This document shows positions 48,392 to 61,611 of a stretch of 64,000 nt of DNA, piece by piece. Source of the stretch: Candidatus Bruticola sp. (lineage in GTDB: Bacteria; Vulcanimicrobiota; Xenobia; Xenobiales; Xenobiaceae); contig JBJEGD010000040.1 of assembly GCA_051874735.1 (NCBI GenBank), forward strand, positions 1 to 64,000, written 5' to 3'. The position numbers and the translations under genes are program-made. How positions within the stretch are numbered: the first letter of the stretch is position 1; every line of letters begins with the position of its first letter. The notes below the pieces were generated by a model. The model worked only from the letters and a program-made list of their open reading frames with translations. It was not told where the DNA came from and searched no databases.

Positions 48392-48991
48392 ATGTCTATC
48401 AATTCCGTTAACTCTTTTGCTAGTACTTACAGTGCGTCCGCTCCTGTATACAGCAAGGAGCAGACCAATGGCGAAGCTGTTGCAGTTCAAGCAGAACCGC
48501 AGGAAATGTTCGCTCTAAGCGAAGAAAGCAGCGATCCCATTGCTCAAAAGCCTAGCTTTGCTACTCGTGCCGTTCGCAATGTAGCCGGTGTGGTAACTGG
48601 AGCTATTGGGGCTGCTGCTGGAGCCACTAAGGGTGGCTTAGTTGGTGCTGCTGAAGGCAAAGTGAGCTTATCTCACGATGCTAAAATTGTTCTGCAAACT
48701 ATTGGTGCTTCTGCCGGTTTAGTGGCCGGCTTGGCTATTACTGGTGCTGTCGGTGGTCCGGTTGCTCTGGTGGGTGGTTTGATTGCCGGTCCTTTAGTCG
48801 GATCAATGGCTGGTGGTGCTGTAGGTGGTGCTGTTGAGGGGCTCGGTTCTGCTTTGGTCGGTGCCGGCCCTGGTGCTGTCAGAGGTGCTAAGAAAGGCTT
48901 CGACATCGGTCGTACCGTAATCGACAAGATTGTAGCCAAAGATACTCCTGCTCCTCAAAATGACAATCAAACAAAGTCTCTCGGTGAGTAG
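48392..48991 (+). CDS. Glycine-zipper-rich hydrophobic protein
   Basis: Multiple GxxxG repeats over about aa 60-170; polar N-terminus without a Sec signal. Confidence 0.7.
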   Translation: MSINSVNSFASTYSASAPVYSKEQTNGEAVAVQAEPQEMFALSEESSDPIAQKPSFATRAVRNVAGVVTGAIGAAAGATKGGLVGAAEGKVSLSHDAKIVLQTIGASAGLVAGLAITGAVGGPVALVGGLIAGPLVGSMAGGAVGGAVEGLGSALVGAGPGAVRGAKKGFDIGRTVIDKIVAKDTPAPQNDNQTKSLGE

Positions 48992-49102: not shown

Positions 49103-50917
49103 TCATTCAGTTGTATCGATTGCTTCAAGCTTGTCTTTTAAAACTTTAATAAATTGTTTTTCATCGGTATGCAGGTTCAAACTGCAGGCCTTATTGAACA
49201 TGTTCAAGCTTTGGGCAATATCATTTCTTTCCAAGTAAAGCTGCCCCAAAACCAAATAAGGGTATCCATCCTGCGGAGCTTCTGAGGCTAAAGATTTTAA
49301 GGATTGCTGTAGAGAAGCGCTGCGTTCCGATTTAAAAGCTCCGCGAAGCCACTGAATTTTTAATAAATAACTGTTGGGCAATTTGTTGGCTAAAAGAGCC
49401 GCTGTGTCGTCTAGTTCGTACCAAAGACGCTGGTCGCTGCAGAATTGGCAGATTGCTTCTGCCATGAAATTGGGCATAGCGTAAGAAGATAAGCTTTGCA
49501 GCTGGCAGGCCGCTCGGGGGCTCTGAATAGTAAATATGTACAAGAATGCTCGGGCTTCGATAACGTCTGGATGACGTTGAGGCAGCTTACTGAGCCAAAA
49601 TTCAGCGGCCTGCCAGTCATATTTAAACATAGCTTGCCAGGCCTGTAACATTTTGGCTGCCGGTTCTTCCATCAGGCTTAGGTCTTTTGTTTCTTCGACG
49701 GTGAAATGGTGCTGGCGAATCCAAAATTTGGCCCTGCTTATATTCTGAGGATTGGCTTGTATTTGCTGCTTTATTTGCTTCCAATCTTGAGATGAGGAGT
49801 CGCCTGGCACAGGTTGTGGGGATGGTTGGATATTTTTTAAAGCTGAAGCTAGATCGAGTCGGCTTCGTGATCCGTTTAGACAGCTTTTGTAAGTTAGCAT
49901 TTTATGATTAACCTTAAGTTTTAAGGCTTCAGAATCTAAAAGAAATTTTTGAGTTTTGGTTTGAACTTGTTTAATAATATTGGCAGTTGGTTCTTCTGAA
50001 GCTTTGACTCCTTTGCTATCGTCACCTATATACCAGACTACTAAATTCGGATCTGTTTTAGCAAAGCAACTTTGGCGGGTATAAGAATATCGCCCTTGAG
50101 CTGAATCGACGGGTACATATCCCAAAGTAGGACAAAAAACTTCACACCAGGAGTGGGTTAAGGGCTCTCGAGGTTGGGATGTGCTTAACAGCAGACCTCC
50201 GCTTATTCTCACTTTAAATCCGTTTAACTGTAGCAGCTTGGCAGTAAGTATGGCAGCGTCTGAACATTGCAGACGGCGATCTTTTAACATAGAGGCAAAA
50301 GATGTTTTAGCTTTTTCTGAACCATAATTAAAGTTAGTGCGCATAAAATCGTAAACAGATAGCAATTTATAAAGATCAGTCTTTTGGCTACCCGCAGCTT
50401 GGGAAGCTAATTTATGCAGCATTTCTTCTTCTTCAGACGAAGTTGCTGTTAAAATTTCATGCCAATAATCCGCTTGAAAGACTCGGCGCTCTGAATTTTG
50501 TTGAGCAGCTGCTTCCCAATCTTGCAAGCTGAAATTGTAAACTAAGGCCTCATTTTCCACAACAGCCTGTTGACTGATCGTAAAAAATTGCCCAGGTTGT
50601 ATGGTGAGCTTATTGTAATGGGCATAAGTATTGCCAAATTCATCGCGGCTTTGGCTATCTGGTTCAGGAGTTAGGCGGAAATCGGTAATTTTTTGTCTGT
50701 AAGGCCTATTTTGCAATAGGGGAACTTTTAAAGAGACTAGGCAAGTATAATTGTGCAAATTTTGGTAGCTTACATCGAGAGTAAGACGGCGTTTAATGCT
50801 CTCACAGTCTTCTACAGACGGCATGGGTTGAGCTGTCGATAGGTTGCAACTCTGGCGGCAGCCAGCCAAACTAACTAAGGCAATTACAATTAAGGCCGAA
50901 AACAATTTATGAATCAT
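49103..50917 (-). CDS. Lipoprotein with transglutaminase-like domain and C-terminal TPR-like repeats
   Basis: Lipobox LAGC; Cys-His-Asp triad LQCSD...HSWCEV...VPVD; TPR-like YLVLGQLYLERND. Confidence 0.82.
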   Translation of the reverse strand: MIHKLFSALIVIALVSLAGCRQSCNLSTAQPMPSVEDCESIKRRLTLDVSYQNLHNYTCLVSLKVPLLQNRPYRQKITDFRLTPEPDSQSRDEFGNTYAHYNKLTIQPGQFFTISQQAVVENEALVYNFSLQDWEAAAQQNSERRVFQADYWHEILTATSSEEEEMLHKLASQAAGSQKTDLYKLLSVYDFMRTNFNYGSEKAKTSFASMLKDRRLQCSDAAILTAKLLQLNGFKVRISGGLLLSTSQPREPLTHSWCEVFCPTLGYVPVDSAQGRYSYTRQSCFAKTDPNLVVWYIGDDSKGVKASEEPTANIIKQVQTKTQKFLLDSEALKLKVNHKMLTYKSCLNGSRSRLDLASALKNIQPSPQPVPGDSSSQDWKQIKQQIQANPQNISRAKFWIRQHHFTVEETKDLSLMEEPAAKMLQAWQAMFKYDWQAAEFWLSKLPQRHPDVIEARAFLYIFTIQSPRAACQLQSLSSYAMPNFMAEAICQFCSDQRLWYELDDTAALLANKLPNSYLLKIQWLRGAFKSERSASLQQSLKSLASEAPQDGYPYLVLGQLYLERNDIAQSLNMFNKACSLNLHTDEKQFIKVLKDKLEAIDTTE

Positions 50918-50975: not shown

Positions 50976-51926
50976 TTGACAAAATTAGAGGAAGAGGAGG
51001 GCTTTGAGCTGAAAGTGGGGCTCGTTTCTGGAGGGATAATTGTGAAATATTATTGTTATTCTGCTGTAATATCTGTGCTTTGGGCGGTAGCAACCGTCTG
51101 TCTTCCCTCGCTAGCTGCCAACGAAGATTCTTTATCAGTGAATCCGACTAGCAAAAGTCATACTGGTGTGGATACTGTCACTATTTCTAAAGTTACACCT
51201 CGCACTTCAGCCGATATTCCTCAGAATTGTCAGTTGCCCGTGGTGCTGCTAGCTGATTATCAGCTGCAATCGTCCAGTAGCGGCTTAATAAAAACTAGAG
51301 CCTTCATCTGGTCGCCTAAGGATAAGGGCAGCTCTAGTTATAAAAAGGGGCTGCGTCCTATTTCTGCAGTGATGCAGGCAGCCGTAAAAAAAGGCAGTGG
51401 AAGTGTGAAAGTTTCTTTCCCTCCTTTGGCTATGCCTGTTAAAGCAGATCCTCAAACTCAGTTAGTTGTGGTTTCTAGCTTACAGAACAGTGCTCATAAA
51501 GAAATTGCTTGGGGAAGTAGCTACAATTTTGTGCGCGGTTCTATGATGTTGACTAAGACCGCTGACAAAAGTCCGCGTTCCGCTATCACCGTTTTAGACT
51601 TCTCGCCTAAAGTCGGCACTCTAACTGTAGGCAAAACTCAGGAATTTACTTACAAGTTTCAATACAGCCTTAAAGAACAAGATTACGGTTTTGTTAACTT
51701 CGAATTGAAAAATGCTCTGGACAGTTTTGAAACTAGCCCTTGGTACTGTGCAGCTGTACCAGTTCCTAAAGGAGCAGGAGTTGTAAAGTACGTTTCAGGT
51801 AGATACTTTTTCCCGTACATGTACAAATTCTATAAGATGCGTTTGGGCGTTCTTTATCGCACTGAACCTTTGGGAGGTACTGTTGATGCGCTATTTTACG
51901 GGGATTGGCAGCTTGCTTCTAACTAG
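50976..51926 (+). CDS. Putative secreted beta-rich hypothetical protein
   Basis: Hydrophobic stretch ending SLA|A and a beta-strand-rich body; the real start is probably the GTG at about 51042, after GGAGG. Confidence 0.55.
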   Translation: MTKLEEEEGFELKVGLVSGGIIVKYYCYSAVISVLWAVATVCLPSLAANEDSLSVNPTSKSHTGVDTVTISKVTPRTSADIPQNCQLPVVLLADYQLQSSSSGLIKTRAFIWSPKDKGSSSYKKGLRPISAVMQAAVKKGSGSVKVSFPPLAMPVKADPQTQLVVVSSLQNSAHKEIAWGSSYNFVRGSMMLTKTADKSPRSAITVLDFSPKVGTLTVGKTQEFTYKFQYSLKEQDYGFVNFELKNALDSFETSPWYCAAVPVPKGAGVVKYVSGRYFFPYMYKFYKMRLGVLYRTEPLGGTVDALFYGDWQLASN

Positions 51927-52003: not shown

Positions 52004-52654
52004 ATGAACATAGCCTTCGTTTTAAATTCAGCCGTGCTTTCTGCTACTTGGTCCTCATTCAGAGATCGCGCCGAACGAAAAGGTGAGGGCAGTGCTTGTC
52101 AGCTCGACGGTGGAATTTTGCTGAATGTAGCTGCCGAAAGGGCTCTTTCTAAAGAAATTAAGGCCGCCGAACAATTAAAATATTCCGATTTAGTTCTTCC
52201 TGAGACTAACTTCCATGTTCAGTCTGTCAATTTGGTTCCTTCAATGCGTTCCAGAGTTAGCAAGGCTTTGCGCAATTTGGTAGATGGTTTTGAGCTGCCT
52301 CTGGTGCGTCGCAGTTTCGTCTGGTCTGGTTGTTTTGCGATGCTGGCTTCCGTAATTCTGAGCGGCAGTCAGCCAGTCAGTGCTGAAACTATTCCTGTTT
52401 GCTCTAAGACCGCTGTTCAGTCTGTCAGCCCCGTTCAAGGGCTGCTGGCAGCCACCGAGGTCGATCCTGTCAATCATGCTCTGCGTTTAGGCAGTGCTTG
52501 GGGATCCTACGCTGATTCGGATAGTAGCCATACAAATATCCCTGCTCAGCATATAAATATACCTAACGGGCAGCACAGCAACAGTGCTCATCTTCCATTA
52601 GGCAGCAAAGGACACACTCCTCAGGTTCCTCCTGTGACTGGGGCCGGAGTGTAG
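52004..52654 (+). CDS. His-Xaa-Asn repeat protein 1 (candidate RiPP precursor)
   Basis: ATG 52004 after GGAGG; C-terminus HTNIPAQ-HINIPNGQ-HSN; internal RRSF plus hydrophobic segment ending VSA. Confidence 0.7.
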   Translation: MNIAFVLNSAVLSATWSSFRDRAERKGEGSACQLDGGILLNVAAERALSKEIKAAEQLKYSDLVLPETNFHVQSVNLVPSMRSRVSKALRNLVDGFELPLVRRSFVWSGCFAMLASVILSGSQPVSAETIPVCSKTAVQSVSPVQGLLAATEVDPVNHALRLGSAWGSYADSDSSHTNIPAQHINIPNGQHSNSAHLPLGSKGHTPQVPPVTGAGV

Positions 52655-52721
52655 TTTAGCAACTGATACTAAAGAGAACAGCAGGCTAGTGCAGCCGCTC
52701 CATTTCAGAAAGGCTATTTTT

Positions 52722-53279
52722 ATGAGACGATACAGAGTTGCCTTAGAAAAAGGGACTGAGCTAAATAAAGAGTCGGAATATCTTTTAGAAAACAGAAACC
52801 AAGCGGTTAAAGTTAATTTGCTTTCCCGGTTAGGTTCAGATAGCTCTAGTTTTGAGCTGTCTTTAATATCTTCTAAATATTCTAAGTTGGCTGCTTGTGC
52901 TGCGGCAGTAGGGGCTGTTATAGCTGGCCCCGTTCTGCCTGCTCAGGCTTCTTCTTTGGTAGGGCTGCCTAGCGCTTCTGCCCAAGTGGTTTCTCTGCAG
53001 GAGTGTTTTGCTTGTTCAGCTTTAAGTTCTTGCGGAAAAGAGATTATTTTAGACAGCGCTGTTAAGATTGAATCCCCTGATAATCTGCAGATCGCCCAAG
53101 CTAGCTATCATACTAACGGCTCTACCCATGTAAATAAAACGCCAGTTCCGCATACTAATACTGCTTGGAGCAACCATAGCAACACCGGTGGGCACTCTAA
53201 TGGCGACTGGGCCAACCATGGCAATACCGCTTCTGGTACTGGACACGTAAATTTGGTGCACGGCGACTTCTTATTCTAA
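52722..53279 (+). CDS. His-Xaa-Asn repeat protein 2 (candidate RiPP precursor)
   Basis: ATG 52722 after GAAAGG; the last 56 aa contain 7 HxN, 2 WxN and 1 HxD. Confidence 0.75.
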   Translation: MRRYRVALEKGTELNKESEYLLENRNQAVKVNLLSRLGSDSSSFELSLISSKYSKLAACAAAVGAVIAGPVLPAQASSLVGLPSASAQVVSLQECFACSALSSCGKEIILDSAVKIESPDNLQIAQASYHTNGSTHVNKTPVPHTNTAWSNHSNTGGHSNGDWANHGNTASGTGHVNLVHGDFLF

Positions 53280-53307
53280 GCTTAAACTCTTCAACTTTTG
53301 TGTCTCA

Positions 53308-53343
53308 GGCTCGGCTCATTGTATGGCTGAGCCGCCTTTTTTT
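53308..53343 (+). terminator. Stem-loop with T-tail between precursors and maturase-like gene
   Basis: CGGCTCA...TGAGCCG stem, closed by AGG/CCT, followed by T7. Confidence 0.65.
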
Positions 53344-53407
53344 CAGCCTCTTTAATCTGCCTTCCCATATTTGTTAAGGTTGATGCAGAGGCCGCGGAGG
53401 TTTTGTT

Positions 53408-54613
53408 ATGCTCAATCTGGTTGCTCCAGTAAGCTGCAACATTATTTTAGCGTCTGAAGCTTGTACGGCTGCTGATACGCTCAGTTTTCAAGAGTGGTCG
53501 GCTATTTTAGACCAGCTTGGAGCAGCTAATGAGTTTCGAGTTTACGGTTTTGAGAGATGGTTTTCTCTTAGACAAGAAGTCGGCGAAACAGCAGAAAATG
53601 TTCTGTCTTGGTGGAATAGACTGGATAGTTGCCAAAAGTGTTTTCACGTCTATTTTGACGGTTCAGTTGCTCTGGAGAAATTTCCCAGCAGTCTATGGGC
53701 TGCTCTCTTAAATTGTTCTTATTTAGGAAGCGTAGTATTTTGTTTTTCCGGTCAGCGTGCCTTAGCGGAAGAACCAGGCTGGACGCTCCTGGAAAATGCT
53801 GCCGCCGCTGGTTTCGATACTGAAGTGTCTATTTTGTTAACTGAATACAGCGCTTTATCTATTGAAGAGCTTACTAATGAAGCCCTCGACGGTGGGGCGT
53901 CGCTAGTTATTTTTGAGCGCTTATCTCCTGCTGAGAGTGGAGAACTCTCTTTAGAGAGCTTGCGCCGCAGTGCTGAACAAATTAAGGAGCTGCGCCAGCT
54001 CGGTGTAGAGGTGGCTATGAGCGGATGCTTCCCGAATTGCTTTAGCAAAGGCGATATACCTTCTTGTTTAGCTGGTACGGTTAGTTGTGCTATTACTCCC
54101 GACGGGATGCTTCGTCCCTGTCGTTATGTCGACAGTTCAGGCTGCTTAAGTTTAGTGCACAACAGTTTGACTGCCGCTTGGCGCAGCGATGCTTTTATAA
54201 ATTGGCGCCGTATTAGTTCCGAGAGTTGTCAGCAGTGCAATAAATGCAATCTCTGTCCTGGAGGTTGCCTGCTTTATGCTTACAAGAGCGGCGGCCAAGA
54301 TAAAGATCCTCTGATTTCAGAAACTGAGACGGAGGAGACTATTTTACAAGAAGTTACTTTGGAAGATGAACTTTGCCCAGTGCCTTGTTACAACATAAGG
54401 GCTGAGGAGTTCGGTTGGTTGTTGATGCGCGGATCTCGAGTAGTTCCTGTCAGTCCTAAGGCTGCGTCAGTTTTGGCCCGTTTCGATGGTAGAACTACGC
54501 TTGGCCAGATAGAAGAAGAATTCGGATCGGGAGCTTTGTCATTTATTTACTCGCTGTATGTGCGCGGTTTTGTTGAATTTAAAGATATGGTGGCGCTGGG
54601 TGAGGACAGCTGA
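53408..54613 (+). CDS. Radical-SAM-fold/SPASM protein with C-terminal PqqD/RRE-like domain, lacking CxxxCxxC
   Basis: SPASM CLAG...CAITPDGMLRPC...CQQCNKCNLCPGGC; LSFQEWSAILDQL helix typical of rSAM; C-terminal IRAEEFGWLL...FDGRTTLGQI...LYVRGFV winged-helix pattern. Confidence 0.8.
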   Translation: MLNLVAPVSCNIILASEACTAADTLSFQEWSAILDQLGAANEFRVYGFERWFSLRQEVGETAENVLSWWNRLDSCQKCFHVYFDGSVALEKFPSSLWAALLNCSYLGSVVFCFSGQRALAEEPGWTLLENAAAAGFDTEVSILLTEYSALSIEELTNEALDGGASLVIFERLSPAESGELSLESLRRSAEQIKELRQLGVEVAMSGCFPNCFSKGDIPSCLAGTVSCAITPDGMLRPCRYVDSSGCLSLVHNSLTAAWRSDAFINWRRISSESCQQCNKCNLCPGGCLLYAYKSGGQDKDPLISETETEETILQEVTLEDELCPVPCYNIRAEEFGWLLMRGSRVVPVSPKAASVLARFDGRTTLGQIEEEFGSGALSFIYSLYVRGFVEFKDMVALGEDS

Positions 54614-54659: not shown

Positions 54660-55121
54660 ATGAGGCGAACTTTGAGCCGCGATTTTATGGATTTGGTGCG
54701 TCATTTTGCCTACCATGAAAAGCAAATCCATGTTTATGGTGTGACAGAGCCTCTATACCGCTCGGAAATTCACGTGGTTTGGTTGGTGGGCGTCGAACCA
54801 GGTCTTTATGGAATGAAGCTGGCGAAAAAAATCGGAGTGACTAAAAGTGCAGCTTCGCAAATTCTTTCCAAGTTAGAGAAAAGGGGCATGATTTCTAGCC
54901 GCGTAGCTGCCGATAAGCTAACGAAGCGGGAATACGCTTTAACTGAGGAAGGCTGGAAAGTCTTTGCTTTTCATGAGGAGTTGCACCGCGAGTTTGAGAA
55001 ACGCTTTAATACTTTTTTTAAAAAATATACTCCTGAGCAGCGTAAGTTTTTGAAGACGTTTGTGCAAGACCTCAATAACGTTTTGGACATTTGGTTTACT
55101 GACGACCTTTATATATTGTAA
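54660..55121 (+). CDS. MarR family transcriptional regulator
   Basis: LAKKIGVTKSAASQILSKLEKRGMI...D...YALTEEG winged HTH. Confidence 0.9.
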   Translation: MRRTLSRDFMDLVRHFAYHEKQIHVYGVTEPLYRSEIHVVWLVGVEPGLYGMKLAKKIGVTKSAASQILSKLEKRGMISSRVAADKLTKREYALTEEGWKVFAFHEELHREFEKRFNTFFKKYTPEQRKFLKTFVQDLNNVLDIWFTDDLYIL

Positions 55122-55377
55122 GAACTAAGAATTGTCATTGGCAAGTTAATTTTTGTAATATTTTCTGTCTGCTATAGGCTGTGTTGTTTCTTTTCTAAAA
55201 TTACCTTAAGAGAAGTCCCGATTTTGTAAGTATTTTAGCGTTTTTTTAGGAGGAAAAGGCGAGACAATATTTAAGGTTTGCGCTATCATAATGTAAGAAG
55301 GTGTGCGAGGGCTTGGCAGCGCTTTAGAGCTTCTTCTATTCGGGCCATGCAAAAAAAGGAGAGGAAACTATCGTAAT

Positions 55378-55953
55378 ATGCGTGTTTTAACCAAGCGTTC
55401 GAGGTTTTATGCTTTTTCACTGATAGAACTTATGGTAGTTATATCAGTGGCTTCGCTGCTTATAGCTATTGTAGCGCCAGCCTGGAGTAGCTATAATACC
55501 CGTCTAATGGTACTGACTAATGCCAATGAAGTGGCGGCTGAACTGCGCAATGCTCGTGAAAAAGCTTTCCGCAGTGGATATTTTGTGTATTTTTATTATC
55601 AGTATAATAGCTCTAAAAGAAAAACATACTATTCTTATTGTAGGACTGCGCGATTAAGTTACATTAATTTATCTAACGGTGTTTTGACCGGTAATGCGGG
55701 TTGGGGTGGGAATGCAGTAACTAATTCGTTGCTTTCTAAGGTTCATGTGCTAGATCGCAGATGCGATTTTTATAGTAGCGCTACTGCTACCTCTGCTCTC
55801 TCTAATGCTTACATTAGTTTTGATATTGATGGATCTGTTTTTGATACGTCTGGTTATGTAAAATCAGGTGACAATTATGTCATATATGTAGGCTCTGGAG
55901 GCTACTGTGTGCCAATTACAATTTCTCCTATCGGGCGAATAACGGTAGGTTAG
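55378..55953 (+). CDS. Type IV minor pilin/pseudopilin (FimT/GspH-like)
   Basis: Prepilin motif A|FSLIELMVV...AIVAP, then LRNAREKA; C-terminal ITISPIGRI. ATG 55378 after GGAGAGG. Confidence 0.85.
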   Translation: MRVLTKRSRFYAFSLIELMVVISVASLLIAIVAPAWSSYNTRLMVLTNANEVAAELRNAREKAFRSGYFVYFYYQYNSSKRKTYYSYCRTARLSYINLSNGVLTGNAGWGGNAVTNSLLSKVHVLDRRCDFYSSATATSALSNAYISFDIDGSVFDTSGYVKSGDNYVIYVGSGGYCVPITISPIGRITVG

Positions 55954-55955
55954 GT

Positions 55956-56831
55956 ATGAACAAGAACATCAATTTTGTTGCACAGAAGAAAAAACGGGGA
56001 GTGGCCCTTATTTCGGCCCTTTTCGTCTTAGTTATTATGGCTACTATTTGCGGCGGCTTTGTTTCTATTATGGCCCAAAATAGCAACGCTTCACGCCGGG
56101 CCGCTGAAGATAGTATTCTGCTCTATACGGCTGAAGCTGGCTTAGAATATGCGAAGTGGTGCGTTAAGCACAACCTAACTTATTACCCGGTGCGCGACCT
56201 TTACACTGCCTCTTCTTCCACCGTACCCAAAATAAAGGCTGGTGGCCTTTATAACTTTTGGGGATCGAGTGCCTATTTCGCTTACCCTGGAGCCGACATT
56301 TCCTCTTCTAATTTGGCTTCAATAGATTATCTGACTCGTCGCTATGAATATCTTTATTGGACTGATTTAAGTTTTGACAACTCTAATCAGAGTGGTCGCA
56401 AAAATGTTTTCGATGTGAACGGGGAAACCCGCTTTCTTACTACCTTCCAAATTACAGCAGGTGTAATTTGGGATAATGCCAAAACCAGCTCAACTTATAA
56501 TAATACTTCTACTGTCAACTATGTCAGGGCTGTGGGCAGTTCCAGTCAGAGAGGGTTCCCTGTAGAATTAGTTTCTACAGCTAGGCTCTGGAGTCTGAAG
56601 GACAACGGTCAGCTTTATAACGCCTTTAATAATCAGAATAGCGCCAATCAGCTTACATTAGTAGAAACTTCCAAACTTATCGAAGATATGGGAGCAGTTC
56701 AGGAGGCCACGCGCACTTTGCACTGTACTTTCATGCATGCGGTCAACGCCGATCAGTACAAGAACAGCTACCCAAAACAAGATTATTACGATGTAAAAAT
56801 GTTTAAAGATTACAGGGATTATGCACGATGA
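55956..56831 (+). CDS. Type IV minor pilin (PilX/GspK-like)
   Basis: KKKRG|VALISAL without Glu5; YTAEAGLEYA. Confidence 0.85.
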   Translation: MNKNINFVAQKKKRGVALISALFVLVIMATICGGFVSIMAQNSNASRRAAEDSILLYTAEAGLEYAKWCVKHNLTYYPVRDLYTASSSTVPKIKAGGLYNFWGSSAYFAYPGADISSSNLASIDYLTRRYEYLYWTDLSFDNSNQSGRKNVFDVNGETRFLTTFQITAGVIWDNAKTSSTYNNTSTVNYVRAVGSSSQRGFPVELVSTARLWSLKDNGQLYNAFNNQNSANQLTLVETSKLIEDMGAVQEATRTLHCTFMHAVNADQYKNSYPKQDYYDVKMFKDYRDYAR

Positions 56832-58270
56832 GTTGGATAAGCGTAAACAGGCGTCAGCGCGGCGTCACTCTCATAGAAATATTGGTGGCCGTAGCTGTTC
56901 TGGCTGTCGGCTTCGGCGCCGTCTTTCAGGTGTTCCCTTTGGGATACGCAGCGGCAGCTAAAGGTAAAAATCTCAATATAGCTTATGAGCTAGCTTCGCG
57001 CCGTTTGGAAGAGGCTCGCGGTTATGTGCTTTTTGGCGGTAATCCCAATAACGGCAATGCGCTATCTTCCTTCTCCTATTGGGGCAGCGGAGCGCCAGCT
57101 CCTGATGGTACTACTTATAAAGCTGTCAGCACTAACGGACAGTTTGTGGCTTTCAGTACTTCTACCGCTCCGGAGAATAAGTTCTTCTACAAAATAGACT
57201 GTCTGCCGGTAGTGGACAACCGTCGCCTTTATTTGGAGTTCCCGGCTAGACGCACTGGCGTAAAATCGCCTATCCACTATAACGGCAGCTACGCTCCAGC
57301 CACAGAGGTAGCTGACACCGCTAACTCAGGGTTCGCCTCTATGTTCCGTTTAACTGTCACTGTGCGCGGTCCGCTTCCTCAGGTCGAGTTGGCTGCCGAT
57401 GATGAGTTCAGTAATTACAGCGAGGGTGCTGTAGAAGCCATACTTTCGACCATGGTGACCAACGAAAACTTAGGCGACGCTTTGTTGGCCAGTAACATGA
57501 CTTTGCGCAATACTACTTATGGCACCGTGGGCGACGACCCCACTGGAGGTCTTACTGGCGTTACCGCTTACAAGGGAATGCCTAGGCGCGGCCCGAGTGT
57601 GGCTAATTTAAATAAAGTGCTCATCAAAGGATTTACCCAGACCAATCCTCATCCTGAAAATTTTACAGTGCTCAATGTCGCCAACTTGACGCCTACCGAA
57701 TTAGCCGATACTGGACCCAGTATCTTAGACAGCAACGGAGCTGCTTCTGTGGCGCGCCGCCGTTTTGCTAACGATGCTTATTACGATCCTAGCTATGGCA
57801 AATACAATCCTTACTACCAAGATAAGACTGGCAGCCAGTTTACAGCTCAGGAGCTTATTGAGACTAATATTCTTGGTTTAGATAACGTTATGATTTACTC
57901 GCCGTCTTTGGCTGTAGGCGGATCTACCTATAAGCACAGTGCTTGTTCCTGGACCGGTGGCGGCTGGATTGCCGAAAGTAACAAGATTCATCGTTTACTA
58001 CCCCCCGGAGCTGGCGGTAATCCCAGCAGCAGTTACTGGTGTTTAGAATTGGTTAACGATTTGATCGGCCGCGACGGCGATTCTCCCAGTAAAGCTGGAG
58101 CTGCTTTAATGGATATGAAGTTTGATGGCGATATTTATCTGGGTAGCAGTAACGTGGTCGGCTATACGGCTGGCAGCTGCGATTCCAGCGGCAATGTGTT
58201 CGGTACGAGAGTGCGTACTCTGGTTCGCATCGAGGCCGGTAAAAATTACAATAACGTTTTACAGTATTAG
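56828..58270 (+). CDS. Large type IV minor pilin (PilV/GspI-like N-terminus)
   Basis: RRQRG|VTLIEILVA, AYELASRRLEE; 480 aa. Confidence 0.82.
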   Translation: MSWISVNRRQRGVTLIEILVAVAVLAVGFGAVFQVFPLGYAAAAKGKNLNIAYELASRRLEEARGYVLFGGNPNNGNALSSFSYWGSGAPAPDGTTYKAVSTNGQFVAFSTSTAPENKFFYKIDCLPVVDNRRLYLEFPARRTGVKSPIHYNGSYAPATEVADTANSGFASMFRLTVTVRGPLPQVELAADDEFSNYSEGAVEAILSTMVTNENLGDALLASNMTLRNTTYGTVGDDPTGGLTGVTAYKGMPRRGPSVANLNKVLIKGFTQTNPHPENFTVLNVANLTPTELADTGPSILDSNGAASVARRRFANDAYYDPSYGKYNPYYQDKTGSQFTAQELIETNILGLDNVMIYSPSLAVGGSTYKHSACSWTGGGWIAESNKIHRLLPPGAGGNPSSSYWCLELVNDLIGRDGDSPSKAGAALMDMKFDGDIYLGSSNVVGYTAGSCDSSGNVFGTRVRTLVRIEAGKNYNNVLQY

Positions 58271-58299
58271 TTAAGGGCGTAACTGCAGGGAGGCACACA

Positions 58300-59040
58300 A
58301 TGAATATGAGGTTTTACGGTTTTAGGTCTGGCCTGTTGAAGCGGCGCGGCTTTACTTTGGTAGAGCTGCTCATATCTATAGCCATGTTTTCGCTCTTTAC
58401 TTTAACTATTACTCAGTTGCTGATGGGCGGTATCGATTCTTTTAAGCGCGGTCAGGTAATTACAACCTTAAAGAATGATGTAAAAACCTGCTTGACTCAA
58501 ATTGAAGCCGATTTGCGTTATGCCAACAGTCGGTCTTCTTTTACCGATCCGGTTTATACTTCTGGAAATCAGTCTTTGGTTATGTCCTTTTATCGTTTTT
58601 ATGCCAGAGATACAGACTGGACGGTTGATGGCTCAACTTCCACTTATAAAGTAGATTATGCTATAGAACAAGAGGGTGATACTTATGTGCTCAATTATTC
58701 TAAAAGGAGCGGTACTAAGTATAAAATGCTTGACGATGTTATGTTAAGTACGGTGCCTGGCCAAGCTGGTACTTCTGGCAATTACAACAGTTATTTCCAG
58801 TGGGGACGCGTTAGCTACGGAAGCAACATTAACACCGTTCCCGAAGATGTAATGAACATACGTTTGACTAGTGGCCGCTATTTAGGCAAAGAAATTTTAA
58901 CTATGACTATGTCTAGTGCGGTAGCTGTTCGTACTCCTGTAGAGTGTTCTAATATGAAAGCTAGCGGTGGTATTCGCACCCAGGCTGTGGAGCTTTTGCC
59001 TTTTGAGGTTAATCTGCGTTCCGGCTCTTTATCATTCTAA
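58300..59040 (+). CDS. Type IV minor pilin (PilW/GspJ-like)
   Basis: KRRG|FTLVELLIS, IEADLRYA. Confidence 0.85.
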   Translation: MNMRFYGFRSGLLKRRGFTLVELLISIAMFSLFTLTITQLLMGGIDSFKRGQVITTLKNDVKTCLTQIEADLRYANSRSSFTDPVYTSGNQSLVMSFYRFYARDTDWTVDGSTSTYKVDYAIEQEGDTYVLNYSKRSGTKYKMLDDVMLSTVPGQAGTSGNYNSYFQWGRVSYGSNINTVPEDVMNIRLTSGRYLGKEILTMTMSSAVAVRTPVECSNMKASGGIRTQAVELLPFEVNLRSGSLSF

Positions 59041-59094: not shown

Positions 59095-59895
59095 TCAGAC
59101 TTGCCGCCAGCGTTTAATGAGCATGGATATTACTAAGAACAGGCAGGCAACAGCTGTAATAGAAGCACTAGTAGGTAAATCATAACGTACGGACAAGCCC
59201 ACACCTAAAAAAACTGAGGCTAAAGCAGAAAGCAGGGAGGCTATGCAAACCCATCTCCAGCGGCAGCTCAAACATAATCCGGTCAGCGGAGGTACTATCA
59301 GCATAGCAAATACTAGCAAAGCACCGGCACTGTGTATAGCGACAGCTATAGCTAATCCTACCGTAAAGTAGAAGAGCCAATTCCAAAATTTTACGTTGTA
59401 CCCTAAAGCCTGAGCCATCATAGGATCAAACGAAGCCAATATAAACTGTTTGCAAAATATGAGGCTCATAGCTGCAATAAAGACTAGCGCGCCAATCATA
59501 AGATAAATATCCGTTGAGGTGACGGCTAAAACATTGCCGAAGAGCAAACTTAGCATATCGCTGTCGGCGTGGGGAGATAAGGCAATAAACAGAACGGCCG
59601 CCGCTCCAGCTGCTACGTAAGCGCTGCCTATGAGCCCTTCTGAAGGAAGTCCGCGTCGATGATCCTTAGCGAAGAAAGTTACTCCTCCCAGCATAAGAAT
59701 GATGGCTCCTAAACTGCAGGGGAGGTGGAGCCAACCGCTCATAGCGATGCCGGCTGTTGCTAGTTGAGCTAGGGCTACTCCTACAAAGGTAATACGGCGC
59801 AGTACGATCAGCACTCCCAAGTAGGCAGTCATTAAAGCAGTCAGGGAAGCCGAAAGCAAAGCTAAAGAAGTAAAATCTAAATTATCAATAGACAT
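59095..59895 (-). CDS. Zn/Mn ABC transporter permease (ZnuB-like)
   Basis: LGVLIVLRR, LLFGNVLAV, SFDP..A.ALG, GALLVFAMLIVP. Confidence 0.92.
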   Translation of the reverse strand: MSIDNLDFTSLALLSASLTALMTAYLGVLIVLRRITFVGVALAQLATAGIAMSGWLHLPCSLGAIILMLGGVTFFAKDHRRGLPSEGLIGSAYVAAGAAAVLFIALSPHADSDMLSLLFGNVLAVTSTDIYLMIGALVFIAAMSLIFCKQFILASFDPMMAQALGYNVKFWNWLFYFTVGLAIAVAIHSAGALLVFAMLIVPPLTGLCLSCRWRWVCIASLLSALASVFLGVGLSVRYDLPTSASITAVACLFLVISMLIKRWRQV

Positions 59896-59936
59896 ATTCT
59901 CTCTCAGAAAAAATAAACGGAAGCCTATTTGCGGTA

Positions 59937-60683
59937 TTATTTATTCCACCGAATGGGACGTCCAAACAGTTTGCTTAAATATTGAGAAGTAAATATCTCT
60001 TTAGGTTCGCCCCAGCTTATAGTGCGGCGGCCATTTTTATCAGAGTGAAAAATGCCGACAATTTGCGCATGTTCGGCCACAATTTCTAACATGTGGGTGA
60101 CTATGACAACTGTCATACCCTGCTTGTGCAGTTGGGAGACTATTTCCAGAGTATCTTGGCTAGCTCCTAAATCCATGCCGTTAGTTGGTTCATCTAAAAG
60201 TAGGACTTGTGGTTTCGACACTAGAGCTCTGGCCATAAGTACTCTTTGCAGCTGCCCTCCAGAGAGAGCGCTGATATGAGAATCAGACCAAGCTTCTAAA
60301 TTTACCTGCTCTAAAGCTTGCTTGACAGCTTGCCGATCAGTCGAAGATGGCCAAAATCTGTTTCCCATTTGGGCGTAGCGTCCCATAAGTACAGTGTCAA
60401 AAACGGAAAGTGGAAAAGAAGTTTCTAAAGTTTGGTGTTGAGGCATATAGCCGAGTCCATGCATACGGTGCTGCTCCTGACCTGAAGAGTCAAAAAATTT
60501 GATATGACCGCTTATAGGTTTAAGAGCCCCTACTAGACCTTTTAAAAGAGTAGATTTGCCGACGCCATTAGAGCCAACTAAGCCGATGTATTTGCCTCTT
60601 TCAAGAGAAAAATTTAGCCCTTCTAGTATGGGATAGCCCCCGTAGCCCAAACTGACTTGGCTGAATTCTGCAAACATAGCCAT
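59937..60683 (-). CDS. Zn/Mn ABC transporter ATPase (ZnuC-like)
   Basis: GSNGVGKST, GYMPQ, LSGGQLQR, LLLDEPT. Confidence 0.93.
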   Translation of the reverse strand: MAMFAEFSQVSLGYGGYPILEGLNFSLERGKYIGLVGSNGVGKSTLLKGLVGALKPISGHIKFFDSSGQEQHRMHGLGYMPQHQTLETSFPLSVFDTVLMGRYAQMGNRFWPSSTDRQAVKQALEQVNLEAWSDSHISALSGGQLQRVLMARALVSKPQVLLLDEPTNGMDLGASQDTLEIVSQLHKQGMTVVIVTHMLEIVAEHAQIVGIFHSDKNGRRTISWGEPKEIFTSQYLSKLFGRPIRWNK

Positions 60684-60684
60684 T

Positions 60685-61611
60685 TTATTTCAAAGCCTTA
60701 ACTAACTGATTAACGTTGTATTCCATCATTTCTAAATAAGTAGAAGTATTAGGTAAACTTCCGGGCTGGATGGGCAATTTTAAAGTGGTGGCTCCCGATT
60801 TTTGAGCCACAGAGTTGGGCAAATTCTCAGGATACCAAGGTTCAAAAACTACCACCTTAACTTTAGAATTTTTCATCAGCTCTACAAGTTCGTTGAGTTG
60901 GCGGCTAGAAGGAGAGACGCCTGGTTTAGGCTCAATATTGCCGCATACTTTTAAACCGAAATGGGCGGCGAAATAGCTCCAAGTGCTGTGATAAGTGACG
61001 ATATTGCTGCCTGCATAAGGCTGTAATAAAGCTTTCCAACGTTTATCGGCCTGATCGATTTTATGCCAGTAGGCGCTGTAATTTTTATCATAAATAGCTG
61101 AGCCTTCCGGATCGATACGTTTAAAAAAGGCGGTCATAGTTCTGGCCACATGTTTTACATTAGTAGGATTGAGAGTATAATGCGGATTTCCGTCAGGGTG
61201 AGCATCGCCACGGGAACGATCGACTTTGCCGCTAGGCTTATCCATAACTTTAATGCCTGAGCTGGCTTCTAAAAAGTTAGGTTGTCCGGGCATAATTTTG
61301 GGATTGCGAGCGCTGCGCAGCAGACTGGGAGCCCAACCTATTTCCAAGGATAATCCCGTTTCGATGAAAGCATCAGCTTGCTGTAAGGTACGCAGATAGC
61401 TAGGTTTTGTTTCCACAAAGTGAGGATCTTGGCCGCCTTTGGCAATACAGGTAACTTTTACACGGGATCCGCCTATCTGGCTGGCTATATCGGCTAAATC
61501 GGGCGTAGTGACAGCCACATTCAAAGTTTTATCGGCGCATACTGGCTGAGAAAAACAAAAAGCCAGACACCAAACTGTCAGAAGAACGCACCAAAAAGAA
61601 GTTTTAGACAT
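60685..61611 (-). CDS. Zn/Mn ABC transporter substrate-binding protein (cluster A-I)
   Basis: Signal peptide; DPH, GNPHY and TYH metal-ligand motifs. Confidence 0.92.
   Translation of the reverse strand: MSKTSFWCVLLTVWCLAFCFSQPVCADKTLNVAVTTPDLADIASQIGGSRVKVTCIAKGGQDPHFVETKPSYLRTLQQADAFIETGLSLEIGWAPSLLRSARNPKIMPGQPNFLEASSGIKVMDKPSGKVDRSRGDAHPDGNPHYTLNPTNVKHVARTMTAFFKRIDPEGSAIYDKNYSAYWHKIDQADKRWKALLQPYAGSNIVTYHSTWSYFAAHFGLKVCGNIEPKPGVSPSSRQLNELVELMKNSKVKVVVFEPWYPENLPNSVAQKSGATTLKLPIQPGSLPNTSTYLEMMEYNVNQLVKALK

Follow-up and report, generated by a model that had tools for sequence, protein, structure and literature searches.

The triceptide and HXS systems are among the closest described parallels to the locus analysed here. 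For triceptides, two sources (PMC11002830, PMC11499958) describe Trp-x-Asn and Phe-x-Asn links to the Asn C-beta, as well as His-C2 links in HAA, HNR and HTK motifs. For HXS, PMC13128918 describes HxsA as a protein of ~214 aa that carries a signal peptide and has five HxS repeats rich in basic residues. Radical SAM (rSAM) enzymes mature it in the cytoplasm; it is processed at its N-terminus and exported, and it acts in the envelope. A His-x-Asn repeat was not found in the literature searched.

The locus lies in the window (the whole stretch of DNA that was analysed, 64,000 nucleotides), and existing annotation of the system is limited to 'hypothetical' and 'SPASM domain-containing protein'. 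A preliminary description had read it as a RiPP-like system of two His-x-Asn (HxN) repeat precursors and a maturase-like gene. We conclude that the system is real and undescribed, and that the RiPP-like reading is partly supported.

The locus and its distribution

The three co-oriented ORFs first noticed, here called A, B and C, were confirmed at their positions. They and their neighbours are as follows.

49103..50917, minus strand: transglutaminase-core and TPR protein (Pfam Transglut_core, E 1.5e-10; lipoprotein-type signal LAGC)
50976..51926, plus strand: orf316, family unassigned, just upstream of A, with an N-terminal hydrophobic segment
52004..52654, plus strand: gene A (216 aa), with N-terminal region, FELPL, hydrophobic segment, linker and HxN tail
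52722..53279, plus strand: gene B (185 aa), with conserved MRRYRVAL N-terminus, FELSL, hydrophobic segment, variable linker and [H/W]xN tail
53308..53343, plus strand: terminator-like hairpin between B and C (9-bp stem, 6 G-C pairs, plus T run)
53408..54613, plus strand: gene C (401 aa), with degenerate radical-SAM-like barrel, complete SPASM domain and C-terminal RRE-like domain
54660..55121, plus strand: MarR-family regulator, weakly AdcR-like, separating C from the pilin genes in this genus only
55303..59040, plus strand: four prepilin-type genes (N_methyl Pfam matches; weak GspH, GspK and GspJ matches)
55303-55953, plus strand: pil1, GspH-like
55956-56831, plus strand: pil2, prepilin-type
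56828-58270, plus strand: pil3, prepilin-type
58300-59040, plus strand: pil4, GspJ-like

Linkage was assessed in the 20 genomes whose C match reached E<=1e-100. A/B-type ORFs stood directly upstream of the C homologue in 15 of these, and in 11/11 metagenome loci with at least 399 nt of upstream sequence. The proposal that HxN-repeat ORFs travel with this clade of C was thus borne out, and the opposite case, that C homologues generally lack such neighbours, was not what we found. Seen from B, its profile matched 17 of 401 genomes, and C was present in all 17. Genomes G007 and G014 have a strong C match and no A/B-type ORF in the flanks read, and in G020 B and C lie on different contigs. The occurrence of [HW]xN-tail ORFs immediately upstream of C homologues across genera supports A and B as specific partners of C. 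In the data searched, the known range is confined to one uncultured phylum (Vulcanimicrobiota/Eremiobacterota), with gut and rumen lineages among its members.

Within the genus, five of nine genomes have both B and C and the other four have neither. Neither pil3 nor orf316 was found in these four congeners, and the transglutaminase-core/TPR gene had no match in them at E<=1e-30. The module is gained or lost as an island, of which the transglutaminase-core/TPR gene is a possible outer edge; in G076 and G070 this gene is ~4 kb away from the cluster, and in locus L073 it adjoins orf316. The orf316 product matched 0 Pfam or NCBIfam families and has its hydropathy peak (2.07) at residues 30-48; its homologues are recurrent neighbours, adjoining the cluster in G064, G086, G108, G007 and L073/L078. 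Pseudopilin genes adjoin A-B-C in other genera too, in varying gene order, and none was found within 5 kb upstream in three loci where C has an intact radical site (L085, L087, L088). The island holds no rSAM gene besides C. The hairpin between B and C recurs only in the closest relative, L037, and is absent from L031, L033, L035 and L056.

The type IV pilus is a common phage entry route. The linkage to pseudopilin genes, together with a patchiness within the genus like that of defence islands, would fit a module that functions like the HXS anti-phage system, or some other envelope barrier linked to pili, placed in the periplasm at a type IV pilus or pseudopilus. HxsA is matured by rSAM enzymes, processed and exported (PMC13128918). 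However, the proteins show no NCBIfam HxsA, HxsB, HxsC or HxsD membership: A and B matched 0 NCBIfam families at E<=0.1, hence no HxsA model, and the 16 NCBIfam matches listed for C include none of the Hxs models (TIGR03976-03979). Relatives of C with an intact radical site scored 48-78 bits against HxsC (cut-off 267.9), a generic similarity only. PADLOC (2023 library) gave no match, Pfam revealed no peptidoglycan-binding domain, and the tails are near-neutral (K+R = 1) rather than basic-rich like the HxsA repeats. We consider this analogy quite unlikely.

The A and B proteins

A and B are paralogous proteins of ~200 aa, not small peptides. They share one build: a leader with the motif [FWY]-E-[LI]-x-L, a signal-like segment ending A-x-A, a variable linker and a [His/Trp]-x-Asn tail.

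52289..52303, plus strand: FELPL motif of A (aa 96-100), with E97 and L100 invariant in 9 A-family sequences
52529..52582, plus strand: HxN part of the A tail (HTN176, HIN183, HSN191)
52851..52865, plus strand: FELSL motif of B (aa 44-48), in predicted contact with the RRE-like domain of C
52887..52952, plus strand: hydrophobic segment of B (aa 56-77), resembling a signal peptide or transmembrane segment, with a conserved A-x-A at its end
53109..53276, plus strand: B tail (residues 130-185), with 7 HxN, 1 HxD, 2 WxN and a C-terminal GDFLF

All eight His of the whole B protein lie in the tail, at residues 130, 136, 144, 152, 158, 166, 175 and 180, and each starts an Hx[N/D] motif (in order HTN, HVN, HTN, HSN, HSN, HGN, HVN, HGD). 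The series was exactly as claimed, as was the presence of WSN and WAN, each directly abutting the next HxN. Whether the tail or the entire protein was shuffled, eight Hx[ND] were reached in 0/200,000 trials, and of the 8,629 stop-to-stop frames in the genome that are 60 aa or longer, B holds the densest HxN stretch. The motif is conserved in relatives: in the C-terminal halves of 12 B-family sequences, Asn stands at +2 of 102 of the 118 His and 21 of the 22 Trp. The family alignment has invariant columns in the tail; the C-terminus reads HVNLVHGDFLF in B, and its family form H.N.V.GD[FY].F is conserved. The dN/dS of B was 0.05 overall and 0.01 in the tail. An AF2 model of B alone gave no confident fold (pLDDT 37).

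For A, the tail motifs HTN, HIN and HSN were as written in the preliminary description, but its account had left out four non-HxN His: two within the tail (HLP196, HTP204) and two further upstream (H71, H158). With three of seven His in HxN, a count matched by ~1.5% of shuffles, the pattern of A is convincing only through its orthologues. Across the C-terminal halves of the A family, Asn is at +2 of 56 of 74 His. The dN/dS of A against its G019 orthologue was 0.07, and each of the four regions fell within 0.03-0.10.

In the leader of B, E45 of FELSL does not vary among 12 sequences, and at least 90% of them keep L48. The hydrophobic segment that follows reaches a Kyte-Doolittle 19-aa maximum of 1.98 at residues 56-74 and ends in AQA, followed by S, with A76 invariant. 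The corresponding segment of A (aa 104-122) is borderline (Kyte-Doolittle 1.49) and ends in VSA, followed by E.

Gene C and its domains

The product of C divides into three parts.

53408..54007, plus strand: degenerate radical SAM barrel (aa 1-200), pLDDT mostly above 90
54026..54376, plus strand: SPASM region, with invariant Cys 207, 211, 220, 238, 274, 277, 283, 287 and 323
54371..54586, plus strand: RRE/PqqD-like domain (aa 322-393), with four strands, then three helices, then one last strand

The AF2 model of C (pLDDT 81, pTM 0.80) has strands and helices alternating over residues 9-170, giving a partial (beta/alpha)6 fold. Foldseek placed SuiB first (4e-11), followed by SkfB, PqqE and CteB; anSME also matched, and the triceptide synthase ChlB came at rank 36. 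A SPASM domain was called on the seven-Cys motif CX9-15GX4C ... CX2CX5CX3C ... C together with a profile match above cut-off. C matched Pfam SPASM with 27.2 bits (cut-off 21.5) and TIGR04085 with 37.2 bits (cut-off 27). Its Cys pattern is intact (C220-x12-G233-x4-C238, C274-x2-C277-x5-C283-x3-C287), and C323 is invariant in the family.

The description of C as an rSAM/SPASM maturase-like gene therefore stands for its fold and SPASM domain, but not for its radical site. The CxxxCxxC motif is absent, with an 11-residue gap where relatives P0017 and P0018 have CNSRCPGC; YGFERW stands where relatives have TGGEP, the GGE-type SAM motif; and no Pfam Radical_SAM (PF04055) match was obtained at E<=0.1. 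Homologues in genomes G005 (locus L048) and G035 (L046) match the same profile at E 2.8e-20 and 4.2e-16. Both CxxxCxxC and GGEP are missing in 16 of 18 family members. The open frame of C extends only 8 codons upstream of its ATG. C appears radical-dead because the triad and GGE are gone, while both are retained in deep-branching relatives that share its neighbours. The relatives with an intact site and A/B-type neighbours are L046, L048, L082, L085, L087 and L088.

C is not decaying: its SPASM cysteines and RRE-like domain are under purifying selection, with dN/dS of 0.13 in the barrel, 0.08 in SPASM and 0.05 in the C-terminal domain. Its features suggest a leader binder that descends from a radical SAM maturase and is radical-dead.

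Having lost the cluster site and SAM motif, and giving no Radical_SAM match, C cannot be assumed to make cyclophanes. The case for C as a working rSAM/SPASM maturase, cross-linking each His or Trp to the Asn two residues on to give poly-cyclophane products, would draw on its maturase fold, its complete SPASM motif, the very strong purifying selection on the B tail and the fit of [H/W]xN to the aromatic-X-X motif of triceptides; links from Trp to Asn C-beta and from His-C2 to C-beta are both known (PMC11002830, PMC11499958). Beyond the missing motifs, however, the N-terminal half of C offers no alternative trio of conserved Cys, invariant Cys occurring only from residue 207 onward. Cys10 and Cys78 are at the starts of modelled strands 9-13 and 78-84, and Cys103 just before strand 106-113, but none of these is conserved in other dead lineages. 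A working maturase in the window is thus very unlikely. Cyclophane formation by this C is unlikely, and the module in the window probably no longer does radical chemistry. For the family, an [H/W]xN-modifying maturase is a reasonable reading because relatives with intact sites have the same precursors.

The [H/W]xN tails are equally well conserved in lineages with a dead and with an active C. This independence makes it hard to regard the motif as a mere substrate of C; the tail may be modified by another enzyme, or the motif may have its own function. Stand-alone RRE proteins such as PqqD and MftB exist, and C might be only a leader-binding adaptor for an rSAM enzyme encoded elsewhere that modifies A and B at [H/W]xN. 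Such an enzyme would account for the strong selection on the tail motif, and the genome encodes four further SPASM-type proteins with intact CxxxCxxC, on contigs C35, C5, C39 and C32. However, none of the four is linked to the island, rSAM/SPASM proteins of the 454-aa type also match in the A/B/C-less congeners G003, G034 and G054, and no extra rSAM gene adjoins C in the dead-lineage loci read (G076 and G040). We judge this arrangement unlikely.

Alternatively, A and B could be exported, unmodified His-rich binders of a metal such as zinc, with C an Fe-S protein in an unrelated or regulatory role. The His-rich tails, their conservation whatever the catalytic state of C, and the Zn/Mn-type ABC importer and AdcR-like MarR regulator that flank the island in this genus would all be compatible with that. 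The MarR and ABC neighbours are, however, specific to this genus. Asn is not a usual metal ligand, but it is as invariant here as His, and Trp-x-Asn is conserved too. The tight co-occurrence of B and C and the predicted contact between leader and RRE-like domain favour a direct partnership instead, and metal binding of this kind seems rather improbable.

The RRE-like domain is the best-conserved part of C. Solved RREs are winged helices of three strands followed by three helices, with the leader bound along a strand and the last helix. In the model of C, strands at 322-348 are followed by helices at 350-356, 365-372 and 374-385. The assignment of a PqqD/RRE-like domain draws on model topology and predicted binding; Pfam PqqD (PF05402) matched 0/18 full-length family members and 0/17 isolated C-terminal domains. 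PqqD itself (3g2b) was the top PDB sequence match of the domain, at a non-significant E of 0.82. Taken with the predicted binding mode, these features suggest an RRE-like domain.

Complex modelling of B with C gave a score of 0.72 (runs 0.72, 0.69 and 0.76), against 0.00 for the best of 3 controls; the mark for such scores was reached by 58/80 solved complexes and 2/110 mismatched pairs. Contacts agreed at 73% or more, with a partner pLDDT of 47-49. The complex score may reflect resemblance to solved RRE-leader complexes, e.g. SuiB-SuiA. The modelled interface sets B 1-11 and 43-50 against C 345-349 and 374-385, its lowest-error contacts being those of B 44-48 with C 345-349, 352, 355 and 375-382. 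B 1-11 and 43-50 coincide with the two stretches of B singled out beforehand as conserved. The conserved F-E-L-x-L leader motif of B is thus predicted to dock on the RRE-like domain of C.

Proposed roles and known systems

With slightly better than even confidence, we read the locus as an accessory envelope module in which A and B form a leader-dependent partnership with C, whose ancestor was a maturase and which in the window is a non-radical partner. C would be cytoplasmic and bind the A/B leader through its C-terminal RRE-like domain, the leader motif contacting strand 344-348 and helix 374-385. In deep-branching relatives with a complete rSAM/SPASM C, [H/W]xN would most probably be modified before export, the simplest chemistry being a triceptide-like cyclophane that joins an aromatic carbon to the Asn C-beta. 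In the lineage of the window, C would most likely serve as a non-radical leader binder, either acting as chaperone or escort of A and B or holding auxiliary clusters for them. A and B would then travel to the envelope, where the tails may act together with the neighbouring minor-pseudopilin cassette. We infer the export and cleavage of A and B, any modification and the role with pseudopilins from these features.

A more specific version is possible, though we hold it with clearly less than even confidence. C would be a maturase turned pseudoenzyme that keeps its RRE-like domain and two auxiliary Fe-S clusters and escorts A and B to the envelope, the radical site having been lost in several of the family's lineages without change to the client motif. 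A and B would cooperate with a minor-pseudopilin cassette of their own, as pilus tip, cargo or HXS-like gate.

Should the family reading be true, [His/Trp]-x-Asn repeat proteins would be a new substrate class of rSAM/SPASM-RRE maturases, and the active members (the six locus types listed above) would be ready targets in the search for a His-to-Asn cross-link. The C of the window would be a natural experiment, with the same clients and leader-binding domain and the radical site deleted, and bears on a question in RiPP biology, the role of recognition domains and auxiliary clusters beyond catalysis.

Among described enzymes, PqqE (6c8v, E 2.2e-9) and MftC (TIGR03962, E 3e-10, 39.8 bits against a cut-off of 265) gave the best sequence matches to C; with the PqqE model TIGR02109, C scored 19.4 bits, below the cut-off of 381. 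The PqqE/PqqD and MftC systems resemble C as rSAM/SPASM enzymes that use an RRE-type peptide-binding protein, whereas C has its RRE-like domain fused at the C-terminus, has other substrates and lacks the radical site. By name, TIGR04347 ('pseudo-SAM/SPASM protein') and TIGR04304 ('GeoRSP system SPASM domain protein') are curated SPASM families without a working radical SAM domain, like C, so the loss of its radical site has precedent in annotation. The similarity is sub-threshold (at most 58 bits against 525, and 37 bits against 300, respectively), and these families are not known to be linked to HxN proteins, an RRE fusion or pseudopilins.

The triceptide systems (XncB, OscB, MscB, HaaB, YhhB, HtkB) have repeated aromatic-X-X precursors, as with HxN/WxN here, and their synthases share the rSAM/SPASM fold with C. 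Among the NCBIfam matches listed, the only triceptide model was YhhB (NF041707), at 16.3 bits against a cut-off of 445. Triceptide precursors are short peptides, whereas A and B have ~200 aa and a signal-like segment; moreover, the C of the window is without a radical SAM site and carries its RRE-like domain C-terminally.

HXS differs in having two active rSAM enzymes, compared with one pseudo-rSAM with a fused RRE-like domain here, where HxsD and a peptidoglycan-binding domain were not found and the tails are neutral. The likeness to HXS lies in A and B themselves, proteins of ~200 aa with repeats of the His-X-small-residue type, a signal-like segment and an rSAM-derived partner. The leader-signal-core design and the pseudopilin link suggest protein-sized exported products rather than small antibiotics, and such products would parallel the recently described HXS defence effector.

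Genes A, B and C and the [H/W]xN tails of A and B

The three co-oriented open reading frames of the preliminary description were confirmed at their positions in the window, which has a G+C content of about 44%:

52004-52654, co-oriented with B and C: A, 216 aa, with a His-x-Asn (HxN) tail
52722-53279, co-oriented with A and C: B, 185 aa, a paralogue of A with an HxN tail
53408-54613, co-oriented with A and B: C, 401 aa, radical SAM (rSAM)/SPASM-fold gene with a C-terminal RRE-like domain

As had been described, the last 56 residues of B hold all eight of its His, seven in HxN and one in HxD, and both Trp of this tail begin WxN, each abutting the next HxN. The motif count of B was matched in 0 of 200,000 shuffles, whether the tail or the whole protein was shuffled, and no other of the genome's 8,629 frames is as dense in HxN as B. 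In A, the HTN, HIN and HSN motifs were found, together with four further His outside the motif. Because of these four His, and because about 1.5% of shuffles reached its motif count, A is weak on its own. A tandem DNA repeat as the origin of the window's tail was ruled out, since TRF detected no repeat at the DNA level.

A and B share a plan consisting of a conserved N-terminal region (M-[RK]-x-[YF]-[RK]-V in the B family), an [FWY]-E-[LI]-x-L motif (FELPL in A, FELSL in B) whose Glu is invariant in both families, a hydrophobic stretch, a variable linker and the repeat tail. The hydrophobic stretch is about 20 residues long and Ala/Gly-rich, with positive charges on its N-terminal side, an A-x-A-like end (AQA before S in B, VSA before E in A) and a hydropathy maximum of 1.98 in B and 1.49 in A. 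These features lead us to infer an export signal, either a signal anchor or a cleavable one, behind a cytoplasmic leader. B modelled alone gave no confident fold, and its pLDDT of 37 is only weak evidence of disorder because the alignment was shallow (12 rows).

C-family loci were then taken from other genomes and their upstream ORFs aligned. In the C-terminal halves of the B family (12 sequences, 7 genera), Asn occupies the +2 position of 102/118 His and 21/22 Trp. The last ~45 residues share the pattern H.N..W.NH.N...GH.N..W.NH.N.....H.N.V.GD[FY].F, in which there are invariant columns of His, Asn, Gly, Asp and Phe. HxN accounts for 56 of the 74 His in the A family (9 sequences). The [H/W]xN motif is conserved across relatives and is not incidental. 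Across the families the HxN copy number ranges from 3 to ~30, with long runs such as PLVAHSNT in G076, L075 and L077 (G, sampled genomes; L, loci). In one genus, the tails of both A and B have grown to ~25-30 HxN units with a period of 7-8 residues (e.g. PLVAHSNT, TPHTNTF), so that the number of repeats can change even though the motif does not:

L032, 3393-5883: expanded A/B tails
L075, 2485-4885: expanded A/B tails
L077, 2175-4326: expanded A/B tails

Compared with the closest orthologue, A has a dN/dS of 0.07, B of 0.05 (0.01 over its tail) and C of 0.10. A, B and C are genuine genes, and this extends to the N-terminal regions of the first two. Neither A nor B had a family match in Pfam, NCBIfam or PADLOC. 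Searching with B alone recovered only 6 proteins, and with the B alignment only 9, named at most 'hypothetical'; a search of the ESM Atlas with B gave no usable match.

Linkage of A/B with C and the surrounding island

The C profile (E ≤ 1e-100) matched in 20 of the 401 genomes sampled from the phylum; these lineages are related and not independent. A/B-type ORFs lie directly upstream of C in 15 of the 20 (G000, G012, G019, G025, G037, G072, G064, G070, G076, G084, G086, G040, G102, G035 and G005), G040 having B only, at a contig end. Two genomes could not be assessed, with C at a contig edge (G080, G098), and three were exceptions: G007 and G014 had no A/B-type ORF in the flanks read, and in G020 B and C are on separate contigs. 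Conversely, the B profile matched in 17 of the 401 genomes, all 17 of which contain C. A metagenome scan gave 13 further loci with a near-full C. Upstream sequence of 399 nt or more was available for 11 of them, and it contained ORFs with [HW]xN tails in every case. The proposal that HxN-repeat ORFs travel with homologues of C was thus borne out, in 15/20 genomes and 11/11 assessable metagenome loci.

The following features surround the three genes in the window:

48392-48991, + strand: 199-aa protein, rich in Gly/Ala and without a known family, just outside the island, 82-91% identical within the genus
49103-50917, − strand: TGase-TPR, a transglutaminase-core and TPR lipoprotein that co-varies with the island
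50976-51926, + strand: orf316
54660-55121: AdcR-like MarR regulator, flanking the island
55303-59040, + strand: pil1-pil4, four prepilin-type genes (N_methyl; GspH-, GspK- and GspJ-like at low scores)
59095-61611, opposite strand: Zn/Mn-type ABC importer (permease, ATPase, AztC/MntC-like binding protein)

Among nine other genomes of the genus, five have both B and C and four have neither (completeness 88-97%). No pil3, orf316 or TGase-TPR was found in these four; the neighbouring metal ABC permease is still present in three of them. The MarR gene and the importer are neighbours of the cluster in the window's genus only. Prepilin genes adjoin A-B-C in the window's genus, G076, G070, G064, G086, G108, L075-L078 and L080, in either order (pil-ABC or ABC-pil). 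Only pil4 is beside the cluster in G102, and in G005 prepilin genes lie within ~5 kb; the 5 kb upstream showed none in L085, L087 and L088. The two secretin and ATPase sets of the genome are on other contigs.

In G076 and G070, some 4 kb separate TGase-TPR from the cluster. In G006 (L051), a C paralogue is immediately followed by a relative of TGase-TPR with 28% identity over 130 aligned aa. TGase-TPR could be an enzyme that processes exported A/B. For the orf316 orthologue of the closest relative (G019, contig C27, 51780-52697), the match was reported to contain a single in-frame TGA. A strong terminator-like hairpin between B and C (53308-53343) is shared only with the closest relative; were it a partial terminator, the A/B transcript would exceed that of C. 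Among the sequence data sets matched to the window none was RNA, and two DNA ones each contained 0.06 of the sampled words.

Fold of C, loss of its radical SAM site and predicted leader contact

The preliminary description gave C a SPASM and a PqqD/RRE-like domain. SPASM was recovered as the sole Pfam match, and PqqD had no Pfam match with either the full-length protein or the C-terminal domain. NCBIfam matches were partial and sub-threshold, the best being mycofactocin maturase (39.8 vs 265 bits). The AF2 model of C (pLDDT 81, pTM 0.80) has three parts:

Residues 9-170: (beta/alpha)6 barrel
Between barrel and C-terminal domain: SPASM region, its seven-Cys pattern complete and invariant
Residues 322-393: C-terminal domain, in which four strands are followed by three helices and one last strand

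The best PDB matches by Foldseek were RiPP rSAM/SPASM maturases (SuiB at 4.3e-11, then SkfB, PqqE, CteB and Tte1186), followed by anSME, with the triceptide synthase ChlB at rank 36.

Where the C-family proteins P0017 and P0018 read ...CNSRCPGC... and TGGEP, window C and 15 others show a gap of 11 residues and a YGFERW-type sequence. On this alignment, the radical SAM site of window C is gone. A sequencing or assembly artefact was excluded, as the same gap occurs in 16 proteins from independent assemblies and in further loci. So was a hidden N-terminal extension bearing the Cys triad: the open frame is only 8 codons longer (409 vs 401 aa), and the MLxLxAPV N-terminus aligns at residue 1 in all relatives. 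A substitute cluster site of Cys10, Cys78 and Cys103 was rejected, the first two being placed at strand starts and the third just ahead of a strand, and all three being unconserved in other dead lineages, those that lost the radical SAM site. Purifying selection persists on the barrel (dN/dS 0.13), making C a maintained pseudo-enzyme rather than a decaying gene. A literature search for pseudo- or inactive radical SAM proteins found nothing relevant.

Active forms, with canonical CxxxCxxC and GGEP, are present at L046 (G035), L048 (G005), L049, L082, L085, L087 and L088, and Radical_SAM was confirmed by Pfam in the G005 and G035 proteins. L043, L045 and L080 have a Cx4Cx2C variant. In the window's genus the whole family has lost both motifs; the triad is also missing in G040, G102, G014, L078, L079 and L081. 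The same kind of A/B neighbours accompanies every active form except L049, and, of the Cx4Cx2C forms, it accompanies L080; tails beside active forms include WxN (e.g. ...PWENWTN...WHN...GDGILF in G005). None of ten active relatives reached any NCBIfam cut-off, leaving the C family unnamed. The active C of G005 (L048) has A-B-C flanked by four B12-binding radical SAM genes, suggesting that this lineage makes further modifications, for instance methylation:

L048, 1766-4403 and 8924-12068: B12-binding radical SAM genes

In the wider C family (160 representatives, E ≤ 1e-30), most full-length members keep the triad and at least 15 lack both motifs, and loss of the radical site seems to be recurrent. 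Further full-length members without CxxxCxxC and GGEP include P0032, P0036, P0039, P0043, P0049, P0062, P0069, P0078, P0098, P0119, P0120, P0136, P0142, P0145 and P0170. P0007, a dead member, has four Cys in its first 15 residues (positions 5, 10, 13 and 15), which may be a re-invented metal site or chance.

The C-terminal domain is the most conserved part of C. In the model its topology matches that of an RRE; the top PDB match of its profile was PqqD (3g2b), at a non-significant E of 0.82. The FELxL motif and the B N-terminus had been marked as conserved before full-length C was modelled with B 1-58. The complex scored 0.72 (runs 0.72, 0.69 and 0.76) vs 0.00 for the best of three controls, at a mark reached by 58/80 solved complexes and 2/110 mismatched pairs. 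Contact agreement between runs was at least 73%, with a partner pLDDT of 47-49. The least-error contacts joined B 44-48 to C 345-349 (strand), 352, 355 and 375-382 (helix), with B 1-11 also involved. This is the binding mode of solved RRE-leader complexes, so the pass may in part reflect likeness to these. The model supports, as a prediction, binding of the B leader by C.

Proposed role and known systems

At the family level, the system is best seen as one in which exported [H/W]xN-repeat proteins would undergo leader-guided maturation. The cyclophanes of the preliminary description are not expected from C in the window, since the radical site of the maturase is lost; the most likely role left to C there is that of a partner that binds the leader and carries Fe-S clusters. 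The strong tail conservation without an active cognate enzyme may reflect a trans-acting rSAM. No extra rSAM adjoins C in dead lineages (ORFs scanned in G076 and G040), and four intact SPASM-type rSAMs are encoded elsewhere in the genome. It may also reflect a role that the motif has in itself, for example in metal binding or structure, or unforeseen chemistry.

By NCBIfam and PADLOC, the latter without any meaningful match, the A/B-C system is a member of neither the Hxs nor the triceptide families. HxN-type precursors could be among the precursor lists of Sugiyama et al. (JACS 2022), on the triceptide landscape, or in the supplement to PMC11499958. A literature search did not find a 'His-Xaa-Asn' repeat, and 'HxN motif' occurred only in unrelated kinase papers. 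No paper joining 'triceptide' and 'HxN' was found. In logic, the system stands closest to triceptide systems and to HXS. The likeness to triceptide systems is by motif, cross-links from Trp to Asn C-beta and from His C2 to C-beta having been described (PMC11002830, PMC11499958). The HXS system is alike through its combination of repeat protein, rSAM maturation and export, PMC13128918 describing a ~200-aa protein with a signal peptide and HxS repeats that is rSAM-matured, N-terminally processed and exported.
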